64,000 nucleotides of DNA, taken from the NCBI GenBank assembly GCA_051294905.1, contig CM119372.1, positions 7,132,001 through 7,196,000 on the forward strand, in the 5' to 3' direction. Positions 11,301-37,641 of the stretch are shown piece after piece. Within the stretch, counting starts at the first letter, position 1. Every line of letters starts with the position of its first letter. The DNA is from Botryllus schlosseri (lineage: Eukaryota). The notes below the pieces were generated by a model, which saw nothing but the letters and a program-made list of their open reading frames with translations, did not search any database and was not told the origin of the DNA. A program made the translations under genes and the position numbers.

Positions 11301-11779
11301 TCTCGTATACTCAAACATATTATGTTAAGCTCAAGTCGCCTGCAGCGGGTAGTAATTACTTTTGTCTTACAAAATATATCGAGTAATAATTACTTTGTCT
11401 TGTAGAATATACCGCGTAGTAATTCCTCTTTCTTACAGAATAGTAACGACTTTTAAAGTTGAATAAAAAATGAAGTGTAGGGATTGTACTTTGTACTTGT
11501 TAAATCTTACCAGCGATATCAAGTTCTGTGGCAAACTGATTACTAAAATTTCACCGCGTGAGCGATCGGTATGGTTATGACACCCAGTCGTGAAAGATGG
11601 TTATGACCGAGACATTATCTTGTCAGCGATCGCGGGGTTTTGCAAACTATTTCACAGCTATTTGAAGTGTTAATTTGTGACCGTTGTTATTGTTGATATT
11701 CGAATCACCGTCTACGCCGGCTCTGTGGTAAACTAAATACCAAAATATTACCTTGCAAGTGATTCCTAGACTTAGCAAA

Positions 11780-12966
11780 CTATTTCACACCTTTTTTGCT
11801 GAAAGTACGACATGCCGCCCGCAGTCTATACCGAAAGTACGAATCACGACCGCACCCATAAGACGCAATAGCCGCATGCGACCCATGCCGTAAGAAATAA
11901 GAGCCGCTCGTCACCCCCGCCATAAGACGCAATAGCCGCTTGCGACCGCACCCATAAGAAATAAGAGCCGCCGCCATAAGAAATAAGTGCCGCTCGCCAC
12001 CCCGGGTTTCGTGTTAGCATCAATAGCCGCTCGCCACTCCCGCCATAAGACGCAATAGCCGCATGCGACCGCACCCATAAGAATACATGGCGAGTCACCA
12101 CAGATCCCGTAAGAATACACGACAGGCGAATCACCGCCACCACCTGTAGCAAAAAAGGCGAGTCACGACCACGAGTTTTCACGATATACACATTAACAAA
12201 GATTCATTCACATGACTATTTACTTGATACATATTCAACACCGGTCGAGTGATCCCTATACCGAAAAGGGTCACCGGTTCAAGACGAGTTTCGAGGCACC
12301 GGTCGAGTGATCCCTATACCGAAAAGGGTTACCGGTCGAGAGATGGCTATACTAGCACCGGTTGAGTGATCCCTATACCGAAAAGGGTCACCGGTTCAAG
12401 ACGAGTTTCGAGGCACCAGTCGAGAGATCCCTATACTCATAAGGCACCGGTCGGGTGGAAGGGGGGTCTGAAAGGGTCACCGGTTCAGGACGAGTTTTCG
12501 CGGCATCGGTCGAGCGATCCCTATACCAACCCAGGCACCGATTTAGCGATAGCGGGGTGTCGTCAACTCACAGATTTCAACCGCCAAAGTCATCAGCGAG
12601 GGGTCACCTCATCACCGCATCCATAAGAACACATGGCACCTCACCGCCGAGAGGGGGGGGTCAAAAGGGTCACCGGTTCAGGACGAGTTTTCGCGGCACC
12701 GGTCGGGTGCACCCATAAGACACAATAGCCGCTTGCCACCCCCGCCATCAGACATAAAAGCCGCTTGCCACCCCGGGTTTCCCAGCCGCTTGCGACCCCG
12801 CCCATAAGAAATAAGAGCCGCTTGCCACCCCAGCCATAAGACGCAATAGCCGCTCGCCACCCCCGCCATAAGACATAAGAGCCGCTCGCCACCCCCGGTT
12901 TTCCAGCCGCTCGCCACCCCGCCCATTAGAGCCCCTGCCACCCCCAGACCGATCTACTATACTACT
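11780..12966. repeat. Modular GC-rich subterminal/TIR repeat region of element 1
   Basis: Repeated CCCATAAGA, GCAATAGCCGC and CGCCACCCC modules (~29 bp), plus ~59-60-bp tandem units ACCGGTCGAGTGATCCCTATACCGAAAAGGGTCACCGGTTCAAGACGAGTTTCGAGGC at 12240-12530. Confidence 0.85.
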
Positions 12967-15936: not shown

Positions 15937-18900
15937 TAATTCTATTTTATTTTCATATATTCCTTTTACATCTATATCCTGCTTTTCTGTTGGTAATTCA
16001 TTAGTTTCTTGCCTTTTGTTCATATTTTTGTGTTAACTTTTTCCCCAATTTCAATTTTTACCCCTTGGCACGTTTTTGGTCATAACTTTTTTCCCCAAAG
16101 TAAAAAAAGTGACAAAACCTATCATTGAAAAGCTGGTAAAATTATCTTTCCAACGGTATATAATACGTCTTTATAAGAATTTTTTCTAGGTTGACCCATT
16201 TTAGACCAAATTCTACAGGACTACAAGGGGTGCGAGCGACTTTTATCAACATGGCGTCACAATGGCGTTTTCCAACGTAAAAAAGTAACTTTATGATGGT
16301 AACATGAATTTTCTGACAACAGTGATTTTAACACAGGTGCCGCGAGAGGTTTGCCGGTGAGCCGTGACTTGAAGTGTGGTAACAAATGTTTTATTCATTT
16401 TTTTTAATCGAAGGATTATTTTACAAAATGTACGTGATCTAAGAATCGTCCCTATGCCACGAACCAATTATCAGGTCATCCTTAGTAGCATGCGTTATGA
16501 TTTCATAGTAGAGTTAGAGATTACGCAAATCGATAGGCCCTAATTTTTCTAAGCCCGTCCGAAAGTGTTTCGTACACGATCCTGGTGTGTTACGACCACT
16601 GAGCTGGTGGTTACGAGTCGACCAGGTGATAGGCAACCAAAGCGGAGGCACCCGGCGTACGATTGGATCAATGGACTGGACAATTTCTAGACCTCTAATT
16701 TTCATTTTAAAGCAGTGGTTCCCAACCTTTTTGTCTTCATTCCCACTTCAGATTTATTCCGAGCCTTCATTCCCCATCAGGACCGTAAACGCGCGAAGCG
16801 CGAAAAATTTATATAATTCATGTTCGATTCGGTCAATATGATCGGGTTTGGCCTATAATTTGCTATAAATTTTTTATCACCTCTCTGCTCACGTAATCAG
16901 ATCTACCGGTAAAGCTGAGTGAGGTGTCTTGGAAAAGGTACGATCCCTAAATATGAATTGAACATCTTCGGGCAGACCCGTTGATATATTGACTTCGTTA
17001 CATGATGCTATTTCGTGACCTCCTATATAATAATGCTATGTCAAAAGATATGGAAACTGCCAAAAGTAAAAGGCACGCACGATTTCAAATTTGTATTGCT
17101 TTACTGGCAAATAATTTTTCCCTGCACGATGGCAATTATTGTAGAGTTACCATATTTTTGTGAAGCAAATTCCGGACACTCTTTAGCGCCAACTAGCGGA
17201 TTTGAAAATGAGGTGACATATTGTCTGTCAATATGACGTCACACTAGCAAAGCATTGCCCATCGACTGTATACAGCAGTGGTAATGGTGCGCGAAGGTCT
17301 TCCAGGTGGTACGCGAGAAGATTCTGTTTTTTTCGACTGAAGGGATTTATTAGTTCAAGGGTTGATCCTGAGTTTTTGAAGCCGCCGTCGTCGAGGTAAG
17401 GTCGTCGTTGTTGGTAGTGGTTATCCCACCAGTGACGGCCTACTGGGAAGAGATCTAGTCGTAAAGCATTGGGATTCGTACCCAACCAAATTCTGTTTTA
17501 ATATATTTGACCACAAGAATTTCAAATGGATCCACTATAGAAATCATATACTGCGCCCTAACATGCACCTCAACATGGTGGAAACATTTTGACCGCCTTC
17601 AGCGCGCTTATCTTATGTAGGTGGTACGCGAGCACTGCATAAAACCTCGAAATGGTACTTGGGAGAAAAAAGGTTGAGAACCACGAACCACTGGTATACG
17701 GGAATGCAGTGGAACATATAGGTCTTGGATTGGGTCATCTGTAATGTGGGCTCTGGTGATTTCTGTTATGTTCGTGCATTTTACGTTGGTATCGTTTGTT
17801 TCTTATTTGTCTAGGATTAGTAATTACCGCCAATCATTATTTCCTCGTGTGTCGTGAGTAGTAGTATATATCGGTCGCATGACGCAATGGTGTTCTTATG
17901 GGTGCGGCGGTGACGCGCCTGGAAACTCGTGGTGGTGATGCGCCGTTTTAGACCCCCCTCTCGGCGGTGATGCGCCATGTGTTCTTATGGATGCGGTCGT
18001 GATTCGCCTTTTCGGGTATGGGCTGCGGCGGTGATTCGTATTGAAAACTCGTGGTGGTGATTCGCCTTTTTTGGTATAGGCGATGGCGGTGATTCGCCTG
18101 TCATGTATTCTTACGGGATCTGTGGTGACTCGCTATGTATTCTTATGGGCGCGGCGGTGATGTGCCTGAAAACTCGTGGTGGTGATTCGCCTTTTTTGGT
18201 ATAGGCGGTGGCGGTGATTCGCCTGTCATGTATTCTTACGGGCTCTGTGGTGACTCGCCATGTGTTCTTATGGGTGCGGTCGTGAATCGTACTTTTAGGT
18301 ATAGACATCTCTTACATATCGTACTTTCGGGTATAGGCATCACTTAACAGGAAATTCACTAATCCGCAGTGCATTGTGTGATTTTGAAAACCAGATGTTG
18401 GCGGTTGTATTTTGACCTGTGTGACCAACTAAATACGTCCGTTTTGGAAATTCGGAGCGCGCACTATCGCATCGATTATCACACTAATACAGTCGGTGCT
18501 ATTACATTCAGCAGTATTCAGTATTCAGCAGCGACACGAAAAGCGACCAACAAATAACCGCGCTCGTAAATTAACACTTCAAAAAGTGTAAAATAGTTTG
18601 CAAAACCCCGCGATCGCTGACGAGATAATGTCTCGGACATAACCATCTTTCGCGACTTGGTGTTACAGGTATATCGATCGCTCACGCGGTGAAATTTTAG
18701 TAATCAGTTAGTCACAGAACTTGATTTCGCTGGTAAGATTTAATAAATACCGACTAACAGAACCATCAGTGTGGGTAACTTGAATAGCAACAAATTGTCA
18801 CTTATTTCCGCCCTAACCCTAATCCTTTGTGAGATTACCACATACTCAAATAGATGCGAAATAAGTGTGAAATCATACAATCTTTTTAGGAATATTACTT

Positions 18901-19849
18901 GACTTGACCAACTTTCGGCTCTGTTTTCGATTTCCACACAGTCGCTATAAGTTTCCACGCTTCTAGAATAGGATTGACTTTAGACACGTCATAAGAATCA
19001 TGGTAATATTCAATCAATGTGTCAATTTACCAACTCGAAATCTCACTCGCGCTACAAGTGAAGCTGAATTGTATCCGAATATGCTAATTTACCGCCGCTC
19101 AGCGCCAAACTGACTCTGTATAACAATATTACGCATGCGCGGTATTTCAGATTGGTATAATGTCATTATCAGCAAATATTTCACCAACTTAATCGTTTAC
19201 CTTTACACGAATCAAAGCTAAAGTTGAAACGACAATATCAAGGTTTGAAACCTTACAACTCGATCAGTGATTTTTTATTCAACTGTAAAATAAGTTAATA
19301 TTCTGTAAGACACAACAATTATTGCTCGGGTAATGTGACATTGAGATTACCAAATTGTATATTGAGTATACGAGATTTGAATGTTTGACTAGTGATAGAC
19401 TGAAAAATATCTCGCAAGAGAATCCATGTGTTATGATGCAGGCTATCGTGACACAAACAAATTCAATACGGAATATCTATTAACCAATTGGCCCCCCAAC
19501 CCGAGATTCGAGTGTTCGATCAGTGCTCGATAAAAATTATTTTCATGTATACCAACTCTTGCGTTGTGGTGAAGGGTGTTACGGTATGAGCAAAGTTTTA
19601 ATAAACACCATTATCAGCACCCCGATTGAGAAAAAACTTGATTCGTATGTATGAAAAGTGTTTGATTGGGAATTTATCTATTTCTCACAATCCCGCCACT
19701 GTTTTGAGGACTGGTATTATATGATTATTAAATAATATTTCACAAACTCAAGCCACTGTTTTTGAGGAATGGTATTATATGATTATTAAATAATATTTCA
19801 CAAACTCAACCCTAATCGTAAGACTTGAGAGAAATCACGTATTCGCTTG

Positions 19850-20140
19850 ATGATAACACGCATGCGACAAAAAAACATCACCGCGATTTTGTAAACTGAT
19901 CATACTAATCAGGGTATTTACCATCACGCTTCTAGAATAGGATTGACTACTAAAGGTAAATTCAGATAATCCAAAATGAAATATCTCAACTTTGACATAG
20001 TCTGAATTGAAATAGATTGACAAGCATACCTACCAACTTTCACCCACTCACATTTCGAAATTATGCACACATTGATTTGAAACAAGTAATGTAACATTAC
20101 AACTCTATTCCCGATCCAGCTTTCCGTTTGTCAAAGAGAC
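19850..20140 (-). pseudogene. Decayed packaging-ATPase (A32/FtsK-HerA-like) remnant; further copies at 22455-22620 (+) and 63690-63960 (-)
   Basis: Walker-A-like GGA AAG -CT GGA TCG GGA ATA (GK[S/T]GSG[K]) at ~20108-20127. Walker-B and downstream-like KYFILDYL...FRH(R/H)TITFLIIRTQ, clearest in the 22.5-kb and 63.7-kb copies. Confidence 0.45.
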
Positions 20141-20195
20141 ATTTTAACATCTTACCATACTCAAAAGAATTATTCACAACATTAACAAGTGTTTA

Positions 20196-20482
20196 AAATC
20201 TAGTTTTCACTTACTTGACTATATCACTACAACTCGCAAACTTGAATTAATTCATCCTGATGGTATTCGTATGACTGATAATTTTTATTCAACTGTAAAA
20301 GTCGTTACTAATCTATAACACAAAGTAATCACTACTCGGAAAATCTAGTTTTCACTTACTTGACTATATCACTACAACTCGCAAACTTGAATTAATTCAT
20401 CCTGATGGTATTCGTATGACCGATAATTTTTATTCAACTGTAAAAGTCGTTACTAATCTATAACACAAAGTAATCACTACTC
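20196..20482. repeat. Tandem duplication of ~145 bp (a ~59-bp tandem pair also lies at ~19694-19809)
   Basis: AAAATCTAGTTTTCACTTACTTGACTATATC...AAGTAATCACTACTC occurs twice, near-identical. Confidence 0.9.
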
Positions 20483-23400
20483 TGTGCATACGACAAGATT
20501 TGAATACTCGGTCTATGATAGCAATTCGCACAAGTGAATCCAAGACATCGGGCTGTGAGAAAATCTTCACCACATTGACCTACTGCCTTATCCAACGTAC
20601 TCAAAGTAAGTAGACACGATTTCAGTAATATACACAATCATTACAACTGTAAACTATACTAATCAATCTCGGTCGTATTCACATATCACAGACCTGTGTT
20701 TTTTTTTTATTCCTTCAGTAAAATGTAGTCGTATTAATCTGACGATAACGTGCACACACAAGAAACATCACCGCGATTTTATAATTGATCACCCGACTAA
20801 GGGTACCAATAAACATCACCGGGAATTTTATAAACTAGCCATATTACTCAATACATCTATCAATATCAGAACGCAAGGTCCAATACCGAAAGAAAAGTAC
20901 TTTTTCAGTTTAATAAAAATCAAATCATTCGTCTTCATCTTGTGAATTGTCACACACCCAACTAATATCATACCAAACAGTTATTTACAACAACCAAGAC
21001 ACAGAAAATTTGTTTTGGACGTTTCGATTTTATTACTGGATGTACTGATCCCTTCGCTTCATACAATCTGGATTTGAACACCATCGAACCTTTGGTATCT
21101 ATCGTTTTGCTGGATACGAATTATGTTAGTAGACTATCTTGGGTTATGAACTCAGTGTGTTAGCGGTCATTCAATATTTTGTAGTATCAACTAGTTACTT
21201 TGTAGGATACGAATGATCATCCTCACAACTCTTACAAAAGTACGAAGGATATTTACATCACACAAAGTAGTCGACTTTACTCGATATCCTCACACTACGA
21301 AACTAAATGATTGCTTAGACTCTACAAACTGTTTTTGATGTCGTTTTTTACACGAATGGTCACACATCTAAATATTCAAATAATCCAACACACAACTATA
21401 GTACTTACAGAAATATCATAGTTCTTGTAACAAAGTTGTATGAGTATAATGTTTATCGTAAGTCCTACACAGTCATATCCATCCGAGTTTGACTTTTAGA
21501 AAACATTATACCGACATCGCGACATCTTTCAAAATTAAAACCACGGTGACCGCTTGAGATACCTACCAACGATATCACAGTAATACAGTTACTTCCACAA
21601 AAGAGTATGTATTCGACTTACTTTCCACAAATCTAACGCACAAAACAATTTACTTTGCTAACGAAAAGTGCTGAGTCATCATATGATTGTCCTCGCAACA
21701 ATACAACTAAAACATACTATCATACAAAATGGTCGTTATAGTTTGCATACCAACGATACATCGTACAAGTAACAAGTCTCGAGAATCCAGTTATTCAAAA
21801 AACGTGAAAGTGTTTCTACGCCAAGTCGTTATGTTGACGAAAGCGTATTTCGTAATATCATGATCGATTTGCATTCGTTGGTCACAAAATGTCACTACTC
21901 TAAATAATTATTTTTCACTCAAACACAAAAGCATACTTGTCACCAATCGTTTTCATCAAGCACGAGTTCAAGAAGCTTACTACGACATGAATTCATATTT
22001 TTATGTTGTGTAAATAGGTAATAATCAATTTTAGTAACACTATATCAACATCATCGAGTTGTGCGAATAGATTTACATGTGGTCTTGTGGTTTTAATCGA
22101 AGTACACAGCACGATCTAATGTAGAGCCATCTCTATTGTACAGCAACTCGGTAATCGAAATGCATACATTAACATTTAAACAGCGATCTTGTTTCGTCAC
22201 GCGAAAAATATGTTCACTGTCGCGATACTCAGCACAAGACGTGCAAATCCTTTTCACCCTCGTAATAGTATACCAACGGCTACCGACGACAACGTTTAAC
22301 AATACCAACGACACTGGAAACACTGAAACCACAACACTTAACCGAGTAAAAATACATTTTCCTTTGGCTACATGACACTTACCCGACTAAACAATATCAT
22401 TATCACCTGGAGATCCACCGTTACCCGAGTAACAAAACCATTTCCATATCAACCATACCAACCATACCAACTTTCAATCCAGTCAATGTCAAAGTCCAAA
22501 TATTTCATTTTGGATTATTTGGATTTACCTTTAGTACATCCCGCGAATGGATTCCGACACCACACTATAACATTCTCAATAATAAGGACTCACGGATTTT
22601 CAATCAACAATACCTGCATTTTTTGGTAATGTTAGAGTTGGCAAATGATTAGTTGCGTGTTTTTTGTTAAGCGTTTGATTTCGCAGTAATAAATACAACG
22701 ATTGTATGTGCATACTTGCAATTCTTGATTCTCATTGAGTTAGTTTGTATTGATTCTATAGGCGTGAAAACAGCAGCGCGGAATGTGCGAATAATCCGAT
22801 GCGGCCGAATGTTAGCGTCAGTAATATTCAGGTTACGTTTGATTCGATAGATCGTGTTAAAAGGATTTCTCAAAGGATTTGAGTTGTGTCGAATCAACAC
22901 ATTCAAATACGAATCAACTTGATTTGTGTATAGTGAGTTTCATTTCAAGTTGACAAACTAACACATTGATTGAATATTTTCATGGATCTTATCACGCAAC
23001 TAAAGTCAGCCACTATTCCGGAGGCGTGAAACATATAGCGATCGCGGGCAAGTGTCAAATTGTTGGTTTTCGAATCACCGTCTGCGACGGCTCTGTGACA
23101 AACTTATTGCGGAAATATTACCTTGTGAGCGATCGGTATGTCTGTAACACCAAATCATGAGCGATCGCTATGTCTGAAGCATTACCCTGTGAGTGGTCGT
23201 AGGATTTTAAAATTATTTCACACCTTTTTGAATAAGCGTTCACTTCACAAAGGATTAGGGTTAGAGCGGAAATAAGTGACAATTTGTTGCTATTCAAGTT
23301 ATCGACACTGGCGGTTCTGCTAGTCGTTACTTATTAAATCTTACCAGTGAAATCAAGTTCTGTGACAAACTGATTACTAAAATTTCACCGCGTGAGCGAA

Positions 23401-24602
23401 CGGTATGGCTATGACACCAAGTCGTGAAAAAAGACTATGTCTGAGGTGTTATCTTGTGGGCGATCGTAGGATTTTACAAATATTTCACACCTTTTTGAAG
23501 TGTTAGTATGTGAACGCGGCTATTGTTGGATTTGAATCGCCGTCTACGCCGGCTCTGTGGCAAACTAATTACCAAAATATTACCAAGCTAGTGATTCCTA
23601 GATTTAGCAAACTATTTCACACCCTTTTTTGCTGAAAGTACGACATGCCGTCGCAGTCTATACCCGAAAGTACGAATCACCGCCGCGGCCATAAGAATAA
23701 CGATATATTATACCACACTCACCGTAAACGCGGAACGTTAGCATGTCACCGCACGTATACCAAAAAACATTAGCATGCCACCACGAGTTTTCCCGTTAGC
23801 ATGCGACCGCCGCCTATACCCGAAAACGTTAGCATGCGACCGATCCCTATCTCTGTAACGCTATCATGTCACCCGAGCCATTATCTTGTCAGCGATCGCG
23901 GGGTTTTGCAAACTATTTCACACATTTTTGAAGTGTTAGTTTGTGAACACGGTTATTGTCGATATTCGAATCGCCGTCTACGCCGGCTCTGTGGTAAACT
24001 AATTACCAAAATATTACCTTGGAAGTGATTCCTAGATTTAGCAAACTATTTCGCACTGACTGGATTAGTGTAATAATCGATAGTAGCACACAGCTGCATG
24101 GGAAACAATTCAGCGCGCAGGTCATTCGAAATATAGGTCGCACGCGCTGTGTAATCCTCTTGCACAACAAGCCGCGTTTCCGTCTGCGCGGTTATTGTTG
24201 GTGACTATTCAACACCACGCGAGAGATGGTTGAAAGTGCGAATCACGACCGCACCCATAAGAATACATAGCGAATCACCACAGATCCCGTAAGAATACAT
24301 GACAGGTGAATCACCGCCGCAGCCTATAGCAAAAACGGCGAGTCACGACCACGAGTTTTCACGGCGAATCACCGCCGCAGCCTATACCCGAAAAGGCGAA
24401 TCACGACCGCATCCATAAGAACACATGGCGCATCACCGCCGAGAGGGGGGTCTAAAAAGGCACATCACCACCACGAGTTTCCAGGCGCGTCACCGCCGCA
24501 CCCATAAGAACACCATTGCGTCATACGACCGATCTATACTACTACCGTCGTGCTTTGTATTTTTACCCTGTGTTCTGTTGTCTCGTAGTCTTTCGTTTAA
24601 CT

Positions 24603-26733
24603 CAGTGGTTCTTAACCTTTTTTCCTCCAGCGCCCCCTTTCAAAGATTATCGGGCTCCAGCGCCCCCCCACCTCATATTGTAAGGAATGTACCAAAGACA
24701 ATGAGTAAGAGGGAGGGCCGTAACAGAACTTCGTCAACTCCCCTAAAAACGATTGCCTTGCGCACCCATAGCGTGATAAACCAAACTTCTGAGGGCTTCG
24801 CCCCAAGAACCCCGTAGCGTGATTTCGATGGTCAGCAAAGTTTGTGTGGCCTAGGCCTGGTCGCTTTAGGTGCCAAAATATTCTATATTCCATAAATGAA
24901 TAGGTGGTAATCACATATATATGTCGCTATAAACTTTTTATCCTCTCAGCCCACGTAATCAGATTTACCAGTAGCGCTGAGCTGTTGTATTGGAAAATAA
25001 ACGGCACGTAATTAATAATAAACATATTCGGGCGTGCCCGTAGGTACAATTAATTCGTTGCCAGGGCCGTAACAGCACTTCGTCAGCCCCCCAAAAAACG
25101 TTGGTCTTGAGTCCCCCGGAGAGAGATAAACCAAACTTCCGGGGGGCTCTGCCCTCAGAGCCCCCTTCGGCTATCCGCTATTTATTGATACTGGTCATCT
25201 ACATTGGGTGTGCATTTACTGAGCCAGCTATTCTCGCCTAGACGCGCGAGGCGCGAAAAGTTTCAATAATTATTGATTGAATTGGTCAATATGATCGGGA
25301 AGTGCATATATATTAATATCAATTTTTATCCTTTCTCTGCTCACGTAAACAGATTTACCGGTAGAGCTGAGTGAGGTGCAATGTTCCCTCTAAGCTGCGC
25401 ACGTGCGCAGTGCTGACACGGTCTCTGCGCACAAAAAATATACGTTGCGCACAACAAATCCGAAGTTATGACCTTATTTTAGTCGTTACGCACTGTTGTC
25501 CAAAGGTCTGCGCAGTGAGTTTGTGACTGTGCGCAGACTCGTCAAAACGTAGAGGGAACATTGTGAGGTGTCTTGGAAACTGTAGGGCCCGGAAGTAATA
25601 ATTAAACATAGCCGGGCGGGCGGACCCGTTGATATGACTTCGTAGCATGATGTTATTTCGTGACCTCCTGTCTGCTATATCAAAAAATATAGAATCGCCC
25701 AACAGGGATATCGCCCAACGGGGATATCTAGTTCTATATATCCCTGTCGTCCAATCGTACTAAACTAAAAGACGCACACGATTTCAAATCGGTATTTCTT
25801 CACTGACATATTATTTTATTATTTTTCCCTGCCAGATGGAATTCGTCTTCTTAGGTTCAGATTGCCAAGACAGGAACATTCGTGGTCAGTCATTTAGGCG
25901 CCTATGGACAATTAAACCTATATGTCTTTTGTAGGCTATAAATAACGAAGTTTTCGGTGTTAATTCGCTCTGAATATACTCATTAAGGCCATGTCCTACT
26001 ACCCAGGGTTGTAATGACTCGAGTCATGACTCGACTCGAGTCAGACTCGAGTCACGATTTTCGGATGACTCGACTCGACTCGAGTCATTTTCTTAAAATA
26101 CGGAAATGACTCGACTCGACTCGAGTCAATCTGTGCATTGACTCGACTTGGACTCGAGTCATTGCGTATGACTCGAAGCAAGTCATTGACTCGAGATTCA
26201 GACGGCGAAGACCGACATTTCATTGTAATTTCGAAGCCAACACACTATTGGGATTTCGTTTGTTGGTACTGGTGCTTGAAAATGCGACCAGAAACTGCTA
26301 AAAGTGAGGAAAGTTGATATATTATAAATGCGAACCATTCAATATCACCAAACAGATTTTAAAAAGTGGGTTTAGGAAGACTTTAACTGGAAACTGAGCA
26401 GTCAACACAATGACTTGGACTCGGACTCGAGTCATAATACCATGACTCGGACTCGATCCTCTGTTCGCTGACTTGGACTCGGACTTGACTCGGTGGGAAC
26501 TTGACTCGAGTCAAAACTATAAAAGTGAGATTGACTTGTGACTCGGAGCCTTGTGACTTGGTTACAACCCTGCTACTACCACATCATCTACTGCGAAGCC
26601 ATTTTTCTCCAGCGCCCCCCATACCGCCCCCCTGAGCCCAGCGCCCCTCATATCGCCCCCTGAGCGTTTCCGCCCCCCATCAAAATCGCCAGCGCCCCCT
26701 GGGGGGCGCTGGAGGCAAGGTTAAGAACCACTG
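24603..26733. mobile_element. Non-autonomous hAT element in the 5' LTR
   Basis: TIR CAGTGGTTCTTAACC/GGTTAAGAACCACTG; exact 8-bp TSD GTTTAACT (24595-24602, 26734-26741); subterminal AGCGCCCCC repeats. Confidence 0.93.
26004..26572. mobile_element. hAT-type MITE rich in GACTC/GAGTC repeats, nested in 24603-26733
   Basis: TIR CAGGGTTGTAA/TTACAACCCTG; exact 8-bp TSD CTACTACC. Confidence 0.92.
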
Positions 26734-26857
26734 GTTTAACTGAACTCTGGATCGTGTCGCCTGTCTTAAAGTTATTCTGCTGTTAATATATACTGATTTC
26801 ATATTGCAGCCTCGTCGTATTGAGTTATTGTTCGAACAAGATCAAGAACATAACAAT

Positions 26858-26877
26858 TGGTGTCAGAAGTCGGATTC
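26858..26877 (+). promoter_or_regulatory. Primer-binding site complementary to the tRNA-Leu 3' end
   Basis: TGGTGTCAGAAGTCGGATTC, 2 bp after the 5' LTR end. Confidence 0.85.
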
Positions 26878-26910
26878 AAAGTTATTTCTGCGACGAATAC
26901 TGTATATATC

Positions 26911-29200
26911 ATGGAAGCAAGTATATTGAAGCTTCTGGAGAAGCAGCAGGAAATGATGGCGAAGCAACAAAAGCAGCATGAAGAAACCATGGTAAATCAA
27001 AAAGCACAGCGTAAAGAAGAGCTGAAGCAACAACAGGCACAGCTGGAGCTGCAAAATGCCCGGCACAGAGAAGATTTGGACCAACAACGCGCACAGCACA
27101 AAGAGGAGATGGCACAGCACAAAGAAGATATGGCACAGCAAAAGCTGCAGCATGAGGAAGCCATATCTCAATTAGCACAAAGGTTGAGTCCCGGTACGTC
27201 AACATCAGAAGCTACCGCTCCCAAGTTTGATTCGTTTGTAAAATCGAAGGAGAAGTGGGGCCAATATCTGCAACGATTCAACCATCACCTTGCAATTTAC
27301 GGCATTTCCAACATGGAGAAGAAAAGAGCTTGTCTACTCTCATGGGTCGGACCTGAAAAGTACTCGCTCCTACGTAATTTGTTTGGTGCCGCTGATGTCA
27401 GTGCGCAAACTTTCGACGCGTTGACTGAGAATTTGTCTACACACTTCAAAGACTCCATTCATGTGCAAGCAGCCAGGTACGAATTTTACAACTGTAAAAT
27501 GCAACCGGGACAATCGTACGCCGATTGGATCGCTACTCTACGCGGAATCTCCAAAGATTGCAACTTCATATGCTCAAGAGATGGCTGTGATCAGAGCTAC
27601 GTTGATGAGCTAATGCGCGATCTCATCATTAAAGAAACGCCGCACGCGGATGTGAGACGGCATTGTCTAACACAGGGGTGGGCAAACTACGGCCCGCGGG
27701 CCGCATGCGGCCCGCAACACCGTTCTGTGCGGCCCGCGAGAGTCAAAAGAAACTTTTTTCAAAATATTGAATAAATGCGTACTAAAAATCGACTTAATGC
27801 AGGGACTTGATTGAACTTTTTCTTTGTGTATTTCACAGTGGTTCTCAAACTGTGTGGCGCGCCCACCCACCCCTTGGTGGCGTGGAAGCATCTGAATGGG
27901 GGGCGCGAAGCTGAGCTAAAGCGAAATTTTTTTGCGCGCTCCGCGCGATTTATCTACAGTTCATATTTCGTGCTCGGTATTTAGTCTGAATTTCAGATTT
28001 CAAAATACATCATCCACAGTCGTTCCATGCCATTAAACAATCCGTTAGGTCTGCTTCAACCCTAGTTGCGTTTTGTGATGTTACAATAAGGGGGCGCGAA
28101 ATCTTTCACCATCTTAAGGGGGGGCGTGTTAAAAAATTGAGAACCACTGTTCTAAGGTAAATACTTTCTATACTCTTTTTTATGTTTAATTTCTGGCGCG
28201 ACAGCCCGATTTCAAGGCCCACGCAGTTAAAAAGGTTTCAACTGCTAACCATCACAGAAATCATAAACGAGATTGACATAATTCGGATCACGAGTGTGAT
28301 TTCAGATTGGCCACTCCAGTTTCAATTATTTCAGTGATGTGCTTATAAAAACGATTCGCGCGTGTTTTAGGTAGATTCGTTACCTGTTTGCGTAGAATTG
28401 GGGTATTAATATATTATATCTACACATAATAGAAACGTGTTTGAAGCTAACATGGTTATGATGCTGTCAGCATTGTGTGTCATGGAACTGAACCCAAAAC
28501 TGGAATTACCTAATCTATGAACTTATCGCTGCTCACAGTTTTAAATTTCAATCCAGTTCTAAGAATCGGGACAACCAACTTTCATCTCTATAGTTTTGAC
28601 AAATTGGTTATCTACCAGCATATGACATCTCGCCACTATGTTTCTGACGCGTGTACGACATCATCAAAGCAATGTTTGGTTTGTTTTAAATAAGCATATA
28701 TATTATATCTATGTCCTCACTATGTAATCAAATACCAATATTGCGTTTTGGTTTATAATCCCAGTCTTATATAGTGCGGCCCGCGAATGGATTCAAATGT
28801 TGAATGCGGCCCGCGAGCTCAAAAGTTTGCCCACCCCTGGACTCTAACACAAACCAATTCATCCCTTGACGACGTTCTCAAAGTAGCTGCAACATACGTG
28901 AGAACGCTGGAAACCGATAGGGTTATCCAGGGCGAGAGTAACGGTAAAGATACTTCCATCGTCAACAAAATGACTGGAAGCTATCAGAAGGGGAAAAAAC
29001 CTTCCAAATCCATTCAGGGCAACTTCCCGGAAAGACTGAAATCCTGCAGCCGCTGTTTCATCGATCACCAGAGAAAAGACTGTCAATATCGACATTCAGT
29101 ATGTCAGAAATGTGGTCGTAAAGGTCATATCAAACCTGTTTGCATGTCTACCAAACCTAGTATCACGCAACAGGTCACATCCGTCAATTTCTGCTCAGTG
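26911..29200 (+). pseudogene. gag: Gypsy gag (coiled-coil N-terminus, capsid, two Cys/His knuckles), interrupted by 27673-28839
   Basis: W..YL.RF...CLLSWVG motif; removing the insertion rejoins HCL|TQTNSSLDDVL in frame; CSRC...H...C and CQKCGRKGHIKPVC knuckles. Confidence 0.9.
27673..28839. mobile_element. hAT (Charlie/Buster-like) non-autonomous element in gag; contains a nested MITE at 27836-28149
   Basis: TIR CAGGGGTGGGCAAAC/GTTTGCCCACCCCTG; GCGGCCCGCG subterminal motifs; imperfect TSD GTCTAACA / (GA)CTCTAACA. Confidence 0.88.
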
Positions 29201-31009
29201 CCGCTCCTCTCCTTCGACATCGATCAACTATATCGACGCGTAGGAAACCAGCTCTGGATCAACTCCAGCATCAACGGCATTCCGTTGCCGACACAGTGGG
29301 ACACTGGTGCACCCTCCGCCATGGTGGGATTGACTGGGTACAAAACTTTGGGCTCTCCGAAACTCTCAACATACTATTGCTCTTTCGTAGCGTATGGCGA
29401 CAAGCCATAGAAAGTGAAAGGTATTTGCACTGTAACCGTGCAGGTGGGTTCGGAAGTTCTAGTTGGCTTAAAATTGGTAGTTCTGGACGAACACCGTGGG
29501 CAAAACATTTTTGGTCTCGATTGGAGCGATGCTTTCTCCATGACCGCTAAGGGAACGTCTGCTTTGGATGCAATTTGTTCGCAGATGGTCAAATCGCAAT
29601 CATGTAATACTATTGACATTTGTGATTCGAACGACAAATTGGTATCTTTTCAGTCCAAATTTCCCTCCGTTTTCTCAATTGTATTAGGACGATGCACCAA
29701 GACAAAGGTGACCATTCACTTGAAACCTATTGCCAAGCCCGTATTCAACAAGCCACGTCCTTGCCGTTTGCAAGGCAAATCGCTGTTCAAACCGAATTGG
29801 ATAGATTAGTCAATCAAGATATTCTCGAACCAATCAATTACAGTGATTGGGCAGCACCAATTGTTGCCGTCACTAAATCAAATGGTTCAGTACGCATTTG
29901 TGGTGACTTCAAAGCATTGAATCAACAAATTCAGATAGATCAACATCCCCTGCCCTCCTTGGATGAAATTCTTCAAGTTACAGGGTGGTTGTATATTCAC
30001 GAAAATTGATCTTGCCGATGCTTATTTTCAGCTAGAATTAGATGATGATGCGAAGAATTTGTGTGTCATCAACACGCAATTCGGTCTATTCCGTTATCGA
30101 CGCATGTGTTTCGGAGTCGCATCTAGTCCCGCAAATTTTCAACGTTGTATTGATGCCATGATCGCCGGCTTACCCGGTGTTGCTAGTTTTATCGATGACA
30201 TAATCGTTACTGGCATTGATGAACGCGACCATTTTCGCAACTTATCGCTACTCTTTGAGCGCCTCACCGAGTACGGTTTCACCGTCAACTTTGCGAAATG
30301 TGAATTTTTCAAAAGTAGTATCGAGTACCTTGGTCACATAATCGACAAGGACGGCAAACGACCGTCTAACAAATCCGTTGAAGCAATCAAACAGTTGCCT
30401 AAACCTCAGGATGTTCGCCAGCGACAGGCATTCCTGGGCAAAGTAAATTAGTATCGCGCGTTTATTCCTAATTTCACGAATAAAGCCACTGCCTTGTACC
30501 GTCTTCTTCAAAAAGACGCGGAATTCAATTGGAATGCGGACTGTGTCGCAGCTTTTCGCATTCTCAAAAACGACGTAATCGACGCTACGCAGTTAGCTCA
30601 TTATGATGTAAACAAGCAGCTCATTTTGTCAACTGATGCTTCTCAATTCGGAATCGGCGCTGTCCTCTCAATCGAGCACAATGGCGAAGAGAGGCCGATC
30701 ACACACGCGTCGAAAACGCTTCCGGATTCGCAAAAATCCTACTCTCAAATAGAGAAGGAAGCTCTGTCAATCATTTACGGAGTCACTAAATTTCGTCAAT
30801 TCTTGAATGGTAGAAAATTTACGCTCGTAACGGACCACAAACCACTTTTAGCTATTTTCTCGCCGGACAAGAAAATTCCCGTGATTACAGCGCAACGCTT
30901 ACAGCGATGGGCACTAACGCTCATGGCTTACTAATACGATATTCGCTATAAACCGACTAATCAGCACGGAAACGCCGACGGTTTATCTCGCCTACCAAAG
31001 GGTCAAGAC

Positions 31010-33886
31010 CAGTGATTCTCAACCGCGGCTCTCGACTGCTCTCCGTGCGGCTCTCACTAACGATGTGAAATCATTGATGCTTCTACGGAAATTCTAATTA
31101 TTCATGATCATAAATAAATCGCGCCTTCAACACAACAAATGTACGTTTATGTTCACGTTTACTGACGCGAAGGTCATTCCCTGATCACAATAGAATCCTA
31201 CGTAATACAAGTTGTACGGGTAGTGACGTAACATTACCGATAGTAATTTCGGTAGGCTTTAAATCCGAACCTTTACTGCTTTACTGAAGGCTCTGACCGT
31301 CTGACCTAAGCCTAATCAGGTGTCTGTAATGAGACGGGCGAAGTTTATTTCGCTCGAGACGGCGGCTCATATTAGAATACGGGTGACAAGAGACTCGGTC
31401 AATAAGACAATCAACGTTTGGGGTAACTGCAGGTACTTTATTTTCTTACTCTTTGCTTTGATCTTGATAGCGTTAGAAAATATCGGAGACTTTGGTTCAA
31501 TGATAATGTCAGGTTCAGATCAACCTGCAAAGAAATCTCGCACCCTTGTGCAAGAAAATCGGGCCTTTCAAAGTGAATGGGAAGAGGCGTATTTTCAAAT
31601 TGAGGAAAACGGCAAAGCGAAATGCCTTCTGTGCCCTATAATAATAAACGGTGTAAAATCTTTCAACGTTAAGAGGCATTATAAAACACATGCGGGAAAA
31701 TACGACGTCTATCAAGGTGAATCAAGGAAACGGAAGTTAGAATGTCTGAAAGCAGAGCGTAGCAAACAAGGAAAAATGTTTTTAAAAAAAAAAGAACCCG
31801 AAGAGGTAACAATAACATCATATAAGATCAGTCATCTATTGGCCAGCAATATGAAGCCATATTCTGATGGCGAAATTACGAAGCAGGCTATTGTTTTGTT
31901 TACCGAAGACAATTGTTCTCCTGCCATTCAGCAGAAAGCTAAAAAATTGCAGCTTAGCAATGATACAGTAACGCGTCGTGTCGATTGCATATCCCAAGAT
32001 CTGCATGAGCAACTTATTCACAAGTCGCAAGATTTTTCTTACTACTCGCTTGCTCTTGACAGCACTAACGACATTACCGACATAGAGCAATTAGCTGTAT
32101 TCATCCGGGGAGTCATGCCAGATTTCAAGATTTGCGAGGAGTTTCTTACTTTGCGATCTATTCATGGCACAACGAAGGGAACCGACATGTTTCGTGAATT
32201 TCATGCTACTCTTCAAGAAGCGCATTTAGACCCATCGAAATTATATTCATTGGCGACAGATGGCTGCCCAGCAATGCTCGGCAAAAATCTAGGTCTTCAA
32301 GGACTCGTCAACAAATGGCGTGCTGAACAGAATCTTGACGCTGTGACTTGGCAACACTGCATTATACACCAGGAAAGTCTTGTTGCTAAATCATTAAAGA
32401 TGTCCAATGTGACAGATATAGTAATATCGACCGTAAATTGGATTCGAGCAAACGCACTTAACCATCGAAAATTCAAGGCTTTTCTCACCGATATTGATGC
32501 TGACCATGGAGACTTGATCATGTTCACCGCTGTGCGATGGCTAAGCCGAGCTGCATGCCTCAAAAGATTTTACGCGCTACTTCCTGAGATTAAAATATTT
32601 GTCGAAGGAAAGAAAGACATCCCTCAGTTGGGAAACGAACACTGGGTTGCTGACTTGGCGTTCATGGTGGATATTACCTCACACCTGTCGTCACTAAATC
32701 GGAACTTACAAGGAAATAACAAGCTCTGTCACGCCTGGTACGGGACAGTGTCTGGTTTCATTGAGAAATTGTGTCTTTGGAGAAAGCACCTAGAGGAGGG
32801 TGTTACGACACATTTTGTAACGCTTTCAAACCACCGACAGAATGGATCATTCAAAACATATGACCAGGTTATTAGTACCTTGATTGACGGGTTTAAACGT
32901 CGAATAGAGGGAATGCATCATTCCGTACCCCTGATGAATATATTTTCAAACCCAATGGCAGTAGATGCCGCCACTGCCCCTGATATTTTTCAGATGGAAC
33001 TGCTGGACTTGCAGTCCGATATAGAATTGCGACTGTTGTTTCAAAGCAATGGACTCCTTGAATTTTGGGGTGCTGTTCCTGAAGAAAAATACCCCAACCT
33101 GATAGCTAACGCATCGAAGAATACCTGCATGTTCGGTTCAACCTATGTATGTGAAGCCCTTTTCAGCAAATTAGTGAGGATCAAAAGCAAATATCGCAAC
33201 CGATTGACTGATCGTCATCTGAAACAGCTCTTGTGCACAGCTTCCTCCACGATGAAACCTCGTTATGACAAACTTGTGAAAAATCAAATTCAATTTCAAG
33301 TTTCGCACTAAGTTGCAAAATAGATAGTGATCACCACAGATTTAGCGTCACGCCTTGTTCATCCAAACTCAATTCACATGCTCTCGGAACTCAGAAAGAT
33401 TGTGGATTAAGTCTCAATAAACATGTTGTGACGCTAAATCTGTGGTGATCACTATCTATTTACTATCTGGAAGAATGTAAATTGTAAATCATCCGCAATC
33501 GGCTTCAACGGTGAAGGGTATACCTCGGTATACCATCGGTGAAGGGACGTGGCTGGGTAACGTCGTTTCGGAAGTTGTCCGTATGGGGAGTGCCCGCTGT
33601 CACAGTGTCGTCTGGGGAAATTGTCGTATTTGTTTTGGCCGTCGCTGTTTGAGCCAATCGCGGTTTTGGCCGTCGCTGTTATGGCCGTCGCTGTTGTGGC
33701 CAGTCGGTGTTTTGGCCGTCGCTATTAAGGCCGTCGCTATTTTAGCCGTACACCATTTCGTTGATACCATTTTTGATGATATTTTTCTATTCTCAATAAA
33801 TTACGTTATTCGTGCCATCATGCGGCTCCCGACAGAGTTGAGGTTCATAAAATGGCTCCCACAGTGAAAAAGCTTGAGAACCACTG
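31010..33886 (+). mobile_element. Autonomous-looking hAT transposon (Buster/SPIN/GTF2IRD2-like), 2877 bp, inserted in Gypsy pol
   Basis: TIR CAGTGATTCTCAAC / CTTGAGAACCACTG; exact 8-bp TSD GTCAAGAC (31002-31009, 33887-33894); intact transposase ORF. Confidence 0.95.
31500..33311 (+). CDS. hAT transposase (~600 aa from ATG 31500/31506)
   Basis: zf-BED-like CLLC...KRHYKTH; SLALDST (D), TDG (D), HCIIHQ (CxxH), VRWLSR, FGSTYVCEALFS (E), KSKYRNRL. No stops. Confidence 0.93.
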   Translation: MIMSGSDQPAKKSRTLVQENRAFQSEWEEAYFQIEENGKAKCLLCPIIINGVKSFNVKRHYKTHAGKYDVYQGESRKRKLECLKAERSKQGKMFLKKKEPEEVTITSYKISHLLASNMKPYSDGEITKQAIVLFTEDNCSPAIQQKAKKLQLSNDTVTRRVDCISQDLHEQLIHKSQDFSYYSLALDSTNDITDIEQLAVFIRGVMPDFKICEEFLTLRSIHGTTKGTDMFREFHATLQEAHLDPSKLYSLATDGCPAMLGKNLGLQGLVNKWRAEQNLDAVTWQHCIIHQESLVAKSLKMSNVTDIVISTVNWIRANALNHRKFKAFLTDIDADHGDLIMFTAVRWLSRAACLKRFYALLPEIKIFVEGKKDIPQLGNEHWVADLAFMVDITSHLSSLNRNLQGNNKLCHAWYGTVSGFIEKLCLWRKHLEEGVTTHFVTLSNHRQNGSFKTYDQVISTLIDGFKRRIEGMHHSVPLMNIFSNPMAVDAATAPDIFQMELLDLQSDIELRLLFQSNGLLEFWGAVPEEKYPNLIANASKNTCMFGSTYVCEALFSKLVRIKSKYRNRLTDRHLKQLLCTASSTMKPRYDKLVKNQIQFQVSH

Positions 33887-34264
33887 GTCAAGACCCTGAG
33901 TTTGACGAACTGGAAATTCGTGAAAACGCGGAGATCGTTCGCGCTATTTATATGGCATTCGATGGCTTACCGTTAACTCGCAATGAAATTCGCGACGCGA
34001 CGCTGAAAGACAAAACCATGGAACTAGTGAAATTATCTGTCACTCATGGTAATTGGAATGCAAAGACGCACATTGATGATTTTTCTTGGTTTTCGACTCG
34101 CAAACATTCGCTTTCTCTGCACGAAGACATAGTCATGCTCAATATTGATGGTTTTCAGCGCGTAGTAATTCCGCAGTCACTTCGCTCACGAGTCTTATCA
34201 TTGTTGCACGAAGGACATTGGGGTATCGCGAAAATGAAGCAGATGGCTCGACGTTACATCGCAT

Positions 34265-35158
34265 CAGACTTGGACAACTAGATAATTCTAGTTGTCTAAT
34301 TTCACTAAATTAGAGCGAAATGCAAGTAATCTAATTCTAATCTAATTTGTGAGATGTTCTTATGCTCTAATTCTAATTCTAATCCAATTTGTGAAATGTC
34401 CGTATTCTCTAATTCTAGTTCTAATCTAATTATTGTTTTCCTGAAAATGCCTCTTTGTCCGAGGCAGCTTGCTCTATTGCAGTGAGTTAAAAAGAATATC
34501 CCTCTTGCGCAGAGAAATCCAGTGCCAAGCCGCCATCGCCTTACTTACACCGTGCAGTCATAGTAGATATTATGACATATAATAGTCTGCTAGAGTAGCT
34601 TGTAGTCTGCGAACAACATTCTAGTTTCTAAAACTTTACGTTAGTGCATCGCCATTCTGACTAACATGGGGGATGCCCATGGTTACCATAAAAGAAGTAA
34701 TATTTTATTAAAGTATAGTAAAAATCGAGCCAAGCTTGGTGTACAGAAGTTAACCATTCTCATGGTTATGGGAATGCACTGTTGTCGTTTTTTATTAAAC
34801 AAAAATATGTGGCGCTTATCGCCTCACGGTCTTCTGCACCACGCACTATGATTTGATGTGAACTGCATTTTGCTGTATTCATTTCCCATATACAATTTCA
34901 TTCAATTTCCAAGTTTTTGCGAACTAAGTAGCTCCAATTCTAATTCTAATCTAATCTGGAAAAAGCTTAGTAGCTCTAATTCTAATTCTAATCTAATTTG
35001 AAAAAGCTGTGTAGCTCTAATTCTAATTCTAATCTAATTTGGAAAAACTGTGTAGCTCTAATTCTAATTCTAATCTAGTTTGAAAAAAACTGTGGAGCTC
35101 TAATTCTAATTCTAATCTAATTCAGAAAAGCTGAAAATTTTCTAGTTGTCCAAGTCTG
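34265..35158. mobile_element. hAT-type MITE in the integrase
   Basis: TIR CAGACTTGGACAACTAGA; exact 8-bp TSD CATCGCAT; subterminal CTAATTCTAATTCTAATCTAATT arrays. Confidence 0.93.
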
Positions 35159-36163
35159 CATCGCATGGCCTTCCATTAATCGCGACATTGAAAATCTCGT
35201 TAAGAGTTGCGACGCTTGCCGTAAGGTAATGAAAGCGCCTGATCGTCAGTATCGCGAATGGCTAAAAACTTCGGAAAACTTTGAACGAATTCACTTGGAT
35301 TTCGCAGGTCCAATTAACAATAAAATGTTTCTTGTCATCGTCGATGCGCATTCGAAATATCCTTTCGGTGAAGTAATGAATGTCGGTTCTACCGCAACCT
35401 TGTGTGTGGTCAACGCTTTGAGGGAAGTCTTCTCTATCGAAGGCTTGCCCATAACAATTGTCACGGATGGCGGGCCGCAATTCACATCGAATGAATTCGA
35501 TACGTTTTGCTCTAATTTGGCAATCAGCCATATCGTATCACCGTCTTTTCACCCTGCCTCGAACGGGGAAGCGGATCGTTTCGTCCAGACTTTAAAAGCT
35601 GGATTAATAAAAAATTGCGACGGGGGAAAAGATCTCAACTTCGCGCTCCAAACACTTCTCGCTACGTACCGATGTGCACCGCACCCGGGCATAGACTGGA
35701 AAACGCCTGCCGAGATTTTACATGGTCGATAGCCGCGTAATTTGTTAAGTTTGTGCTCGCCCTTCGATAAATCGAAACCCGTTACGCCTAGACAATCAGT
35801 CACTCATTTCGAGATTGGTTCCTCGGTATACGCTTGCAGTTACCGAAGCGGACCAAAGTGGGTTGCTGGCGTGGTGACGGAAATACTGGGGCGTGTTGTG
35901 TACATTGTAAAAACAGATCATGGGTATTGGAGAAGGCATAAGAACTAACTCCAACCACGCTTGATTTCAGCTGGCAATAATACAGCCACACAGGAAGTTG
36001 TTCAACCTCGGCAACCACAAGTTGAGCAACCATTGGTCAGGAATAGGGCACAACGTCCTGTAGCTAGTCCTGCTCGAACGTCGGGCAGACGTTATCCGCT
36101 TAGACTTAGAAAACAAACTGAGTTCTATCGGCCAACGTAAACTACCTTGTATTCTTAACTTAC

Positions 36164-36172
36164 AGGGGAGGA
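36164..36172 (+). promoter_or_regulatory. Polypurine tract
   Basis: AGGGGAGGA immediately upstream of the 3' LTR. Confidence 0.8.
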
Positions 36173-36174
36173 CT

Positions 36175-37641
36175 TGTATGTTCGTGCATTTTACGTTGGT
36201 ATCGTTTGTTTCTTATTTGTCTAGGATTAGTAATTACCGCCAATCATTATTTCCTCGTTTGTCGTGCTTTGTATTTATACCCTGTGTTCTGTTGTCTCGT
36301 GGTCTTTCGTTTAACTCAGGGGTTCTCAACTTCCCTCGTATAACGGGCCGCATTTTCACACTAAGAGACGATGCGGGCCGCAGAACATTATCACAATGTA
36401 TTTGTGAGCTACTATTAAATTTAGGTCTATTTATCAGTCTTATTCGGGCATTTAGTGCATTTTTATGCATTCTAAAGCATTAATGGAGAGCGTTCGTAGG
36501 TTTGCAGGTGCTGTTTTTTTTGTGAGAATATCGATCTTCAAGTGGCGCAAGTAAATCCCTTCATGGAGCGTACATTCCATTCGTTGCCATGTCGGTATTA
36601 TAGTATATGCACCCCTCAAACCCTTCCACCACCAGAGAACCGAACTCTCTGTTTCAATGCGTGAGCGAGCAAGTATAAAATTACGGTGAATTTTTCGTTA
36701 CTGAGGTCATTATCACTTTGAGCTCTCAGTGATATGAGAAGACTTGAGACGTTAGGGGTCATTTCTGAGCAAATCAATCAACTCTTCGCCTTTCCTTCCA
36801 TGGCTGGAGCCCTACACCAATAGTTATGGAAGTCAGCTTTGTCAAATTGATGTCATGGTCCCCTTCCCACGTTTGCCCCGTCAGCATTTCCTCTGGAAAT
36901 ATGCCCATGACCATTCCTATAAAAAGCACCAGGATAATTAGCTATGCAATGTGTGTGCACTGTGTGCATTGATGGATAGGTCCAATGTTAGGCTAAAGTA
37001 GTCTACGTGCCAACCTGTTACAGAGCATGCGATAAAATATCGACTGAGATCGCTATTACTCTTCTGGTGATTGCTGAATCAGACAACTGTAGCTTCGAAA
37101 TTTGTCAGGTGATTTGGGACTTTTTGCTAAGTTCCAGAAATAGCGAATATTCGCACAGTACGTTAAAGTTTTATTGAAGTCATACCTTCTCTAGCAGATT
37201 CTTGGGTTTAGCGATATTCCAAGCAATTTTGAACAATGCGTCTGTCACGTCGTCGGCAATTTTAAATATGATTCGAAATATGGATTGCTGGGCTTGAAAC
37301 CAAGCTAGCAACGTTTGATATGTATAACTCCAGATGAAACTATCGTGCTATCATTTCAAGCTTCTAGGCTTTGTTACAACAACTGTTCTTCGACAAATGT
37401 GACACATCGTTCTTCCATAACAAAACGGGGCCAGTAGTGATTATATCGAAAGGAGTCGCGGGCCGCAAAAGAATCGTCTGCGGGACGCATGCGGCCCGCG
37501 GGCCGCGGGTTGAGAACCCCTTTAACTGAACTCTGGATCGTGTCGCCTGTCTTAAAGTTATTCTGCTGTTAATATATACTGATTTCATATTGCAACCTCG
37601 TCGTATTGAGTTATTGTTCGAACAAGATCAAGAACATAACA
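36175..37641 (+). repeat. 3' LTR (~256 bp) split into 36175-36316 and 37528-37641
   Basis: Matches the 5' LTR pieces; ends CATAACA followed by TSD ATTTC. Confidence 0.93.
36317..37521. mobile_element. Non-autonomous hAT element in the 3' LTR
   Basis: TIR CAGGGGTTCTCAAC / GTTGAGAACCCCT; TSD GTTTAACT on the left and TTTAACT (slightly eroded) on the right. Confidence 0.88.

Follow-up and report, generated by a model that had tools for sequence, protein, structure and literature searches.

A gene-less, Polinton-ended element in a Gypsy long terminal repeat of Botryllus schlosseri and its probable dependence on gene-carrying Polintons

The stretch of DNA analysed here, hereafter the window, comprises 64,000 nucleotides of the genome of Botryllus schlosseri (NCBI GenBank assembly GCA_051294905.1, contig CM119372.1, positions 7,132,001 to 7,196,000 of the forward strand). 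It contains a gene-less element with the termini of a Polinton, or Maverick, inserted in the 5' long terminal repeat (LTR) of a Gypsy retrotransposon (Table 1; positions are those of the window unless another locus is named). The left boundary of the element at 17857 reads AGTAGTAGTATATATCGG... and the right boundary at 24546 reads ...GATCTATACTACTACC; the longer terminal reads are AGTAGTAGTATATATCGGTCG... from 17857 and ...CGACCGATCTATACTACTACC up to 24546, and the (AGT)n//(ACT)n end motif is represented by AGTAGTAGT at 17857 and ACTACTACC at 24538-24546. The terminal inverted repeats (TIRs) can be aligned over 304 nt (17858-18161 with 24242-24545), where they are 93% complementary, with 21 mismatches. 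The terminal region is made of a 125-nt tandem unit, and the motif GGTGAYKCGCC is found in 13 exact copies in the window, 11 of them within the two TIRs, against 0.05 expected, so that chance is not an issue. Further inward, the inverted homology is patchy and reaches to ~2.1 kb (326 nt at 82%, 117 nt at 74%, 82 nt at 77% and 65 nt at 88%); two near-identical arms are absent, a global alignment of the arms giving 64% identity. A preliminary description, made from the letters of this DNA, had proposed a 6.7-kb element with AGT-type ends, TIRs of ~300 bp and an exact GTCGTG target-site duplication, and it is correct to the base, the TIR being 304 nt.

The host is identified as a Gypsy by matches to RVT_1 (1.3e-23), RT_RNaseH (9e-33), Integrase_H2C2 and rve (9.6e-11) in broken frames at 29939-35732; between the LTRs, the domains follow the expected order of reverse transcriptase, RNase H and integrase. 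Its 257-bp 5' LTR lies in three pieces (17764-17856, 24553-24602 and 26742-26855) and its 3' LTR in two (36175-36316 and 37528-37641), and the pair differ by 4 substitutions over 253 compared positions and by one indel, a divergence of 1.6%. A first comparison had given an LTR of 154 bp; this was dropped, as other copies show the LTR to be 257 bp long and here split by a further insertion. The 5-bp duplication ATTTC surrounds the whole unit (17759-17763 and 37642-37646), and hence the two LTRs belong to one Gypsy insertion. The LTR sequence is a high-copy repeat in the genome. The empty site can be read within the same Gypsy: the sister LTR is continuous at 36261-36273, where ...CCTCGTTTGTCGTG is followed directly by CTTTGTA.... 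The element entered after the Gypsy. The preliminary description had placed it in the 5' LTR of a Gypsy whose LTRs differ at ~5 of ~257 positions, with the empty site at 36261-36266 of the 3' LTR; the former is borne out by the substitutions and the indel, and the latter by the uninterrupted read.

The interior appears to be non-coding, within the reach of tblastn and Pfam. Forty-one stop-to-stop frames of at least 50 aa overlap the element, and the longest that is fully inside it is 111 aa, in keeping with the earlier statement that it has no intact open reading frame (ORF). No similarity was found by tblastn with 14 proteins from a local open-frame Polinton (best E 0.25): specifically, there was no pPolB with the 1218-aa polymerase (best E 0.46), no P-loop ATPase with the Polinton ATPase (best E 1.4) and no rve integrase with the 359-aa integrase (best E 6.8), and none of 25 ORFs of the element had a Pfam family at E <= 0.01. 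The decayed pPolB and ATPase ghosts that had been suggested for the interior are, therefore, unsupported. Likewise, the 14 helper proteins gave nothing by tblastn in four palindromic relatives of the element, for which the best E was 0.011. Two candidates for genes were considered and rejected. The 111-aa frame (20610-20945) contains 2-7 stops in each of five relatives, and the overlapping 92-aa (+) and 97-aa (-) frames at 22093-22386 are intact in relatives of at least 90% identity, are broken in most copies below 87% and show no codon-position bias, their differences in 18 distant copies being distributed by codon position as 190/140/173 and 158/190/189, respectively.

Comparison with the remainder of the genome resolves the element into an A-type arm segment, a junction filler and an inverted B-type outer arm (Table 1). 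The A-type, non-coding interior is common to gene-less copies at other loci, at 94-97% identity, which argues that the element was gene-less before it arrived. In particular, a 7.06-kb gene-less element on another chromosome, C9, shares the left 4.3 kb at 94% and has a duplication of its own. The earlier proposal that the element was already dead when it inserted thus stands in one respect, as it would have been gene-less on arrival (C9, 94%; C1, 96-97%), and falls in the other, as it is not a Polinton with decayed genes. The alternative that an autonomous Polinton inserted here and lost its genes afterwards would explain the Polinton-type ends and duplication, but not the absence of protein similarity (best E 0.25) or the occurrence of the same interior elsewhere at 94-97%; moreover, the time represented by an LTR divergence of 1.6% is much too brief for 9 kb of genes to have vanished, and we give this alternative almost no credence.

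The A-type arms do not end where the element leaves them. In the C1 pair, the arms extend ~1.5 kb past the equivalent of 22443, to a 914-bp centre, and the element is accordingly without the inner arm and the centre; for the same reason, position 22443 was rejected as the arm-loop boundary of the relatives. A search with a junction probe, in which 40 of 2,170 candidates were scored, returned 39 matches besides the element itself: all 39 start at 22471-22472, and none of them spans the 22443/22472 junction.

Table 1. Positions of the features of the locus, relatives of the A-type arm, and target-site duplications of the element and of related elements elsewhere in the genome
Feature	Position	Strand	Remarks
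Gene-less Polinton-ended element	17857..24546	+	6,690 bp; G000:C2:7149857-7156546
Left GTCGTG, 6-bp target-site duplication	17851..17856	.	single copy in sister LTR
Right GTCGTG, 6-bp target-site duplication	24547..24552	.	directly outside right end
Left TIR	17857..18161	+	starts (AGT)3; eight GGTGAYKCGCC motifs in 125-nt tandem unit
Right TIR	24242..24546	-	final base C, T expected
A-type arm segment	17857..22443	+	non-coding; 88-97% to arms of gene-less elements (C9, two C1 places, C12)
Junction filler	22444..22471	+	27-28 nt, short CAACCATAC-like repeat, between arm types
B-type inverted outer arm	22472..24546	-	2.07 kb; best relatives 83-90%, in palindromic pairs elsewhere
Block like divergent intergenic region of helper	18340..18456	+	80% to L033 2438-2554
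Host Gypsy retrotransposon	17764..37641	+	257-bp LTRs, ATTTC duplication, pol frames broken
Empty site in 3' LTR of same Gypsy	36261..36266	.	single GTCGTG, uninterrupted
A-type relative	C9:1805698-1810041		94% over 4,342 nt
A-type relative	C1:10992188-10995759		97%
A-type relative, inverted pair on C1	24517282.. and 24524071..		96%
A-type relative, inverted pair on C12			88-96%
Duplication, element under study			GTCGTG
Duplication, L031/32			AACATT
Duplication, L033/34			GACGCA, if right terminal triplet AAT is read as a changed ACT
Duplication, L035/36			AACGTG
Duplication, L037/38			GTGGTC
Duplication, L039/40			AACGCT
Duplication, L045/46			CACAGT
Duplication, L047/48			GATGTG
Duplication, L049/50			CACGTG
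Duplication, C3 12-kb element			GTCCTG
Duplication, C9 7.06-kb element			CATGTG/CATGTC

With the left TIR as query, 67 matches were obtained in the genome, 40 out of 2,013 candidates being scored; the genome searches in general covered 40 of 2,000-3,400 candidates each. Many of the matches form inverted pairs 13-21 kb apart, and ten such pairs were taken for comparison. Eight of the ten are giant palindromes, with arms of 2.6-7.1 kb that are 99.7-100% identical and centres of 0.3-1.0 kb, in which no frame of at least 120 aa looks real; between copies, the identity over the alignable part is 78-92%. The first seven clean palindromes measure 13.3-15.0 kb, and most sampled relatives 12-15 kb. Additional members of 12.0, ~10.4, ~9.1 and 7.06 kb were found, and together with the 6.7-kb element they give a size range of 6.7 to 15 kb; the idea of a tight packaging size limit was dropped on this account. 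The 7.06-kb element on C9 has arms of 1,748 nt at 98.1% and represents another short derivative, whose breakpoint is different.

The target-site duplication is reproducible among these copies: it is a perfect 6 bp in 10 of the 11 elements for which both ends are readable, the C9 element matching at 5 of 6 positions (Table 1). Five others were unreadable in this respect: L041/42 and L043/44, whose ends lie outside the sequence retrieved, C16 and C8, which have no recognisable termini, and C12, in which the flanks are mirror images. Five of the 11 duplications have GTG at the 3' end (GTCGTG, AACGTG, GATGTG, CACGTG and CATGTG), which hints at a possible target preference.

Two further members of the gene-less family lie in the window. 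One, at 4588-12966, has arms at 4588-6980 and 7319-9711 that are 99.7% identical around a 338-bp centre; on the right it terminates at 12966 with ...CTATACTACT, and on the left the arm is apparently truncated, with no matching terminus near the expected position. The other, at 62600-64000, is in inverted orientation and extends past the window end. Elsewhere, the C12 locus (L054-L057; G000:C12:6426251-6453537) contains two mirror-image A-type copies, whose arms are 98.3-98.7% identical despite nested insertions and whose flanks are symmetric for 685 bp beyond the AGTAGT/ACTACT termini. This symmetry implies that the element there was duplicated along with the arm of a larger palindrome, and that whole arms, inserted elements included, do get copied. 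The near-identity of the arms of the palindromes may reflect youth, conversion in place or regeneration during copying.

The two remaining pairs carry genes and have short TIRs. L039/L040 is a 15.3-kb element with a 644-bp TIR at 99.7% identity; its open frames encode the 1218-aa polymerase, a 217-aa P-loop ATPase with weak AAA and Pox_A32 matches, the 359-aa integrase (rve 2.9e-16, chromo 2.2e-9) and several unassigned proteins. L033/L034 resembles it, with broken frames. The assignment of the polymerase draws on its homologues: residues 500-1218 have 23 of them (E 2.2e-146 to 9e-51), five of which carry PF03175 and one of which is labelled a DNA-directed DNA polymerase by its source, and Atlas features place the protein with DNA_pol_B_2 clusters at 0.96. 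Potential helpers are plentiful: the integrase hits 113 places in the genome at E <= 1e-20, and in 73 of them the gene is full-length and stop-free, with an identity of at least 94%. Three integrase groups can be discerned, at 92-100% to that of L039, at 65-67% (384-aa frames, 12 rows) and at 53-54% (8 rows), so that several Polinton lineages coexist in the genome.

Gene-carrying and gene-less copies have a terminal pattern in common, namely AGTAGT(AGT)..ATCGGTCG, then ..TTCTTATGGGTGCGGCGGTGA..CGCCTGGAAAC. The left TIR of the element is 88-89% identical over 305 nt to the TIRs of L033 and L039, and on the right the outermost 711 bp (23835-24545) share 93% identity with the TIR of L033, which is 873 bp long. 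An intact Polinton with related termini, one of the checks set at the outset, was found in L039/L040. Helper-like DNA outside the TIR is limited to one ~115-nt block per arm (18340-18456 and 24073-24182): the first resembles part of the divergent intergenic region of the helper (Table 1), and the second matches the neighbouring intergenic block, L033 2551-2660, at 94%. The divergent intergenic region of the gene-carrying Polintons itself holds a 92% copy of a segment of their own TIR (L033 2551-2660, L034 9373-9482 and L040 7506-7946), and the same block lies ~520-620 nt from the ends in all gene-less members examined; the block may serve both kinds of element as a promoter or binding module.

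These data also bear on the possibility that the gene-less family represents a foldback-type DNA transposon, independent of Polintons, that has an unrecognised transposase of its own and is Polinton-like at its tips only. Foldback transposons of the Foldback/MuDR type or the P type (Galileo) make duplications of 7-9 bp, whereas those of the element and its relatives are of 6 bp, as in the gene-carrying copies. Moreover, the similarity to gene-carrying Polintons spans 300-711 nt at 88-93% and so goes beyond the tips, and no recognisable transposase is present in the element or in four relatives. The long, internally repetitive inverted arms do recall Foldback and Galileo elements (PMC3573991), but we regard a foldback origin as very improbable.

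The Gypsy provides an upper bound on the age of the insertion, which is younger than the LTR divergence of ~1.6%, and 'recent' is meaningful in relative terms only. The preliminary description had the element integrating recently, and this is retained in that restricted sense, the Gypsy having since gained three other insertions. Nested in the Gypsy besides the element are two hAT-like insertions and an ORF for a hAT transposase. The two insertions interrupt both LTRs at the identical LTR position (24603-26733, 2.1 kb, and 36317-37519, 1.2 kb), with CAGKGGTTCTYAAC-type inverted ends and the 8-bp duplication GTTTAACT (7 of 8 in the 3' LTR); they have no interior similarity, other copies of the LTR family have no insertion there, and the pair look like hAT-like elements that struck a single target octamer independently. 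The third is a 668-aa open frame, 31305-33311, with a hAT C-terminal dimerisation domain (2.3e-09), in the pol region. No conversion tract has crossed the three LTR insertion sites since those insertions were made, because each is still in only one LTR.

At the rate shown by the LTRs, 4.8 mismatches would be expected between the two TIRs, as against the 21 observed in 304 (P 4e-8), which implies that the ends were already unlike, by ~7%, at integration. A copy-back or snap-back defective genome, in which both ends come from one parent end and are identical when formed, was rejected on these grounds, the ends differing at 21 of 304 positions despite an insertion younger than 1.6%, and also because the arms come from different sub-lineages.

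Logan contigs aligned to the left junction (X1, X5, X6, X7, X10, X11 and X13) are unitigs only ~60-250 nt long. Joints skipping 6,696-6,707 nt, with sides 20-27 nt long, reach depths of up to 6,700; an empty allele was considered on their basis and rejected, since the joints derive from many paralogous LTRs. One X6 contig is exact to 17828-17921, with a flank side of 29 nt that is below the 31-nt rule, and one X1 contig spans the right junction (24507-24593), X1 possibly being the source sample. In X7 and X11 some junction bins are uncovered, which counts neither for nor against insertion polymorphism, and the run listing comprises 24 runs, with no RNA holder among the indexed ones.

On balance, we regard the element as a non-coding, Polinton-ended molecule that was likely inserted, already without genes, by an integrase that intact Polintons in this genome supplied. 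Judged by its relatives, it belongs to a long-established non-coding lineage. Because its ends are shared with gene-carrying elements and the genes are missing, we infer that it was mobilised in trans by helper proteins. In such a scheme, the protein-primed polymerase of a helper would copy gene-less family members by jumping-back initiation at their (AGT)n terminal repeats, and its rve integrase would insert them, giving the 6-bp duplication. The mosaic would have formed before integration, probably when two different members of the family recombined or a switch was made from one to the other, with loss of the centre of the usual palindrome, and the integration machinery would then have taken a molecule with two ends that were 7% different.

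Several points weigh against this reading. A second copy of the 6.7-kb mosaic was not found among the 39 other scored matches, and this exact form may consequently have moved only once. The closest helper TIR is just 88-93% identical to the ends of the element, among the 40 of ~2,000 candidates that were scored, and Pfam itself gives no PF03175 on the 1218-aa protein. The dating presumes equal rates and no conversion between the LTRs. On mobilisation by helper proteins, what the data show is that helpers coexist with the element. Finally, the mosaic could have arisen in place, if a family member had inserted at GTCGTG and had later been reshaped to 6.7 kb by ectopic recombination, conversion or internal deletion. 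Rearrangements and nested copies are seen in the palindromic relatives, the short C9 derivative has a different breakpoint, and the junction is unique among the scored matches, as expected of a one-off local event. However, the two termini beside the perfect 6-bp duplication are of different arm types: starting from a palindrome with arms at 99.7-100%, no simple internal deletion can yield ends with 21 mismatches in 304, and conversion in place would imply the replacement of 4.6 kb as far as the very terminus, with the duplication left untouched. An origin in place, by ectopic conversion or otherwise, therefore seems to us rather improbable.

Extending the reading of integration by helper proteins, the element might be a fossil recombinant of two lineages in an extrachromosomal, Polinton-dependent satellite population that was replicated by the protein-primed polymerase of the helper, the 27-nt filler being the scar of a template switch; we put this forward tentatively, as a possibility that is more doubtful than not. 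Packaging in helper capsids, and interference with the helper, are speculation. If the satellite reading were true, an active animal polintovirus would have in this family its satellite or defective-genome system, one that evolves as a swarm and not through chromosomal copies and that would be an animal counterpart of helper-dependent viral genomes.

Polintons, or Mavericks, are usually described as low-copy, gene-carrying, virus-like elements. The present element is like autonomous ones in its (AGT)n//(ACT)n ends, its 6-bp duplication and a TIR length inside the reported range of 46-1,447 bp, and its termini have homologues at the ends of gene-carrying copies of this genome; unlike autonomous Polintons, it is without genes, or remnants of genes, for pPolB, integrase, ATPase, protease and capsid. 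The corresponding features of Mavericks are set out in PMC8097293, in which an (AGT)2//(ACT)2 motif, perfect 6-bp duplications and TIRs of 46-1,447 bp are reported, the end motif is given as (AGT)n//(ACT)n or (AG)n//(CT)n, and jumping-back initiation is argued for. Intact vertebrate Mavericks are 12.7-24.6 kb long according to PMC8097293, as against the 6.7 kb of the element, the two ends of which are, moreover, 7% different. The term 'non-autonomous' is absent from PMC8097293, and an anole survey (PMC3014272) speaks of an 'apparent absence of nonautonomous copies' of Polintons. Among the papers examined, we found no description of gene-less Polinton-ended elements; Repbase may list some non-autonomous Polinton entries.

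The element resembles miniature inverted-repeat transposable elements (MITEs) and internally deleted non-autonomous DNA transposons in that it keeps the cis-acting ends, is without genes and coexists with autonomous partners that make the same duplication. It differs from MITE-type elements in that the presumed partner is self-synthesising and virus-like and not of the cut-and-paste kind, and in that the interior is no deletion remnant of the genes of that partner. Defective and helper-dependent genomes are known among protein-primed viruses such as adenovirus. The element is like such genomes in having terminal trinucleotide repeats suited to jumping-back initiation, in consisting of ends plus non-coding filler and in being a recombinant with filler at the breakpoint; in contrast to adenovirus-type defective genomes, it is known as an integrated copy alone.

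The nearest comparison is with the palindromic Polinton-ended elements of the same genome. The element shares with them the sequence family, the termini, the 6-bp duplication and the non-coding state, and its left 4.6 kb is a family arm; unlike them, it has inverted homology that is patchy (74-93%, over ~2.1 kb) and not 99.7-100%, it lacks a centre and an inner right arm, and its outer arms come from different sub-lineages. To these relatives it adds a clean empty site in the sister LTR, with an upper age bound from the LTR pair, and the observation that a non-palindromic molecule with unlike ends was still integrated with a normal 6-bp duplication. Identity of the arms is thus not required for insertion, and the cis requirement for integration is narrowed to roughly the outer few hundred bases. 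Overall, the element is a datable, non-palindromic member of a gene-less Polinton-ended family.

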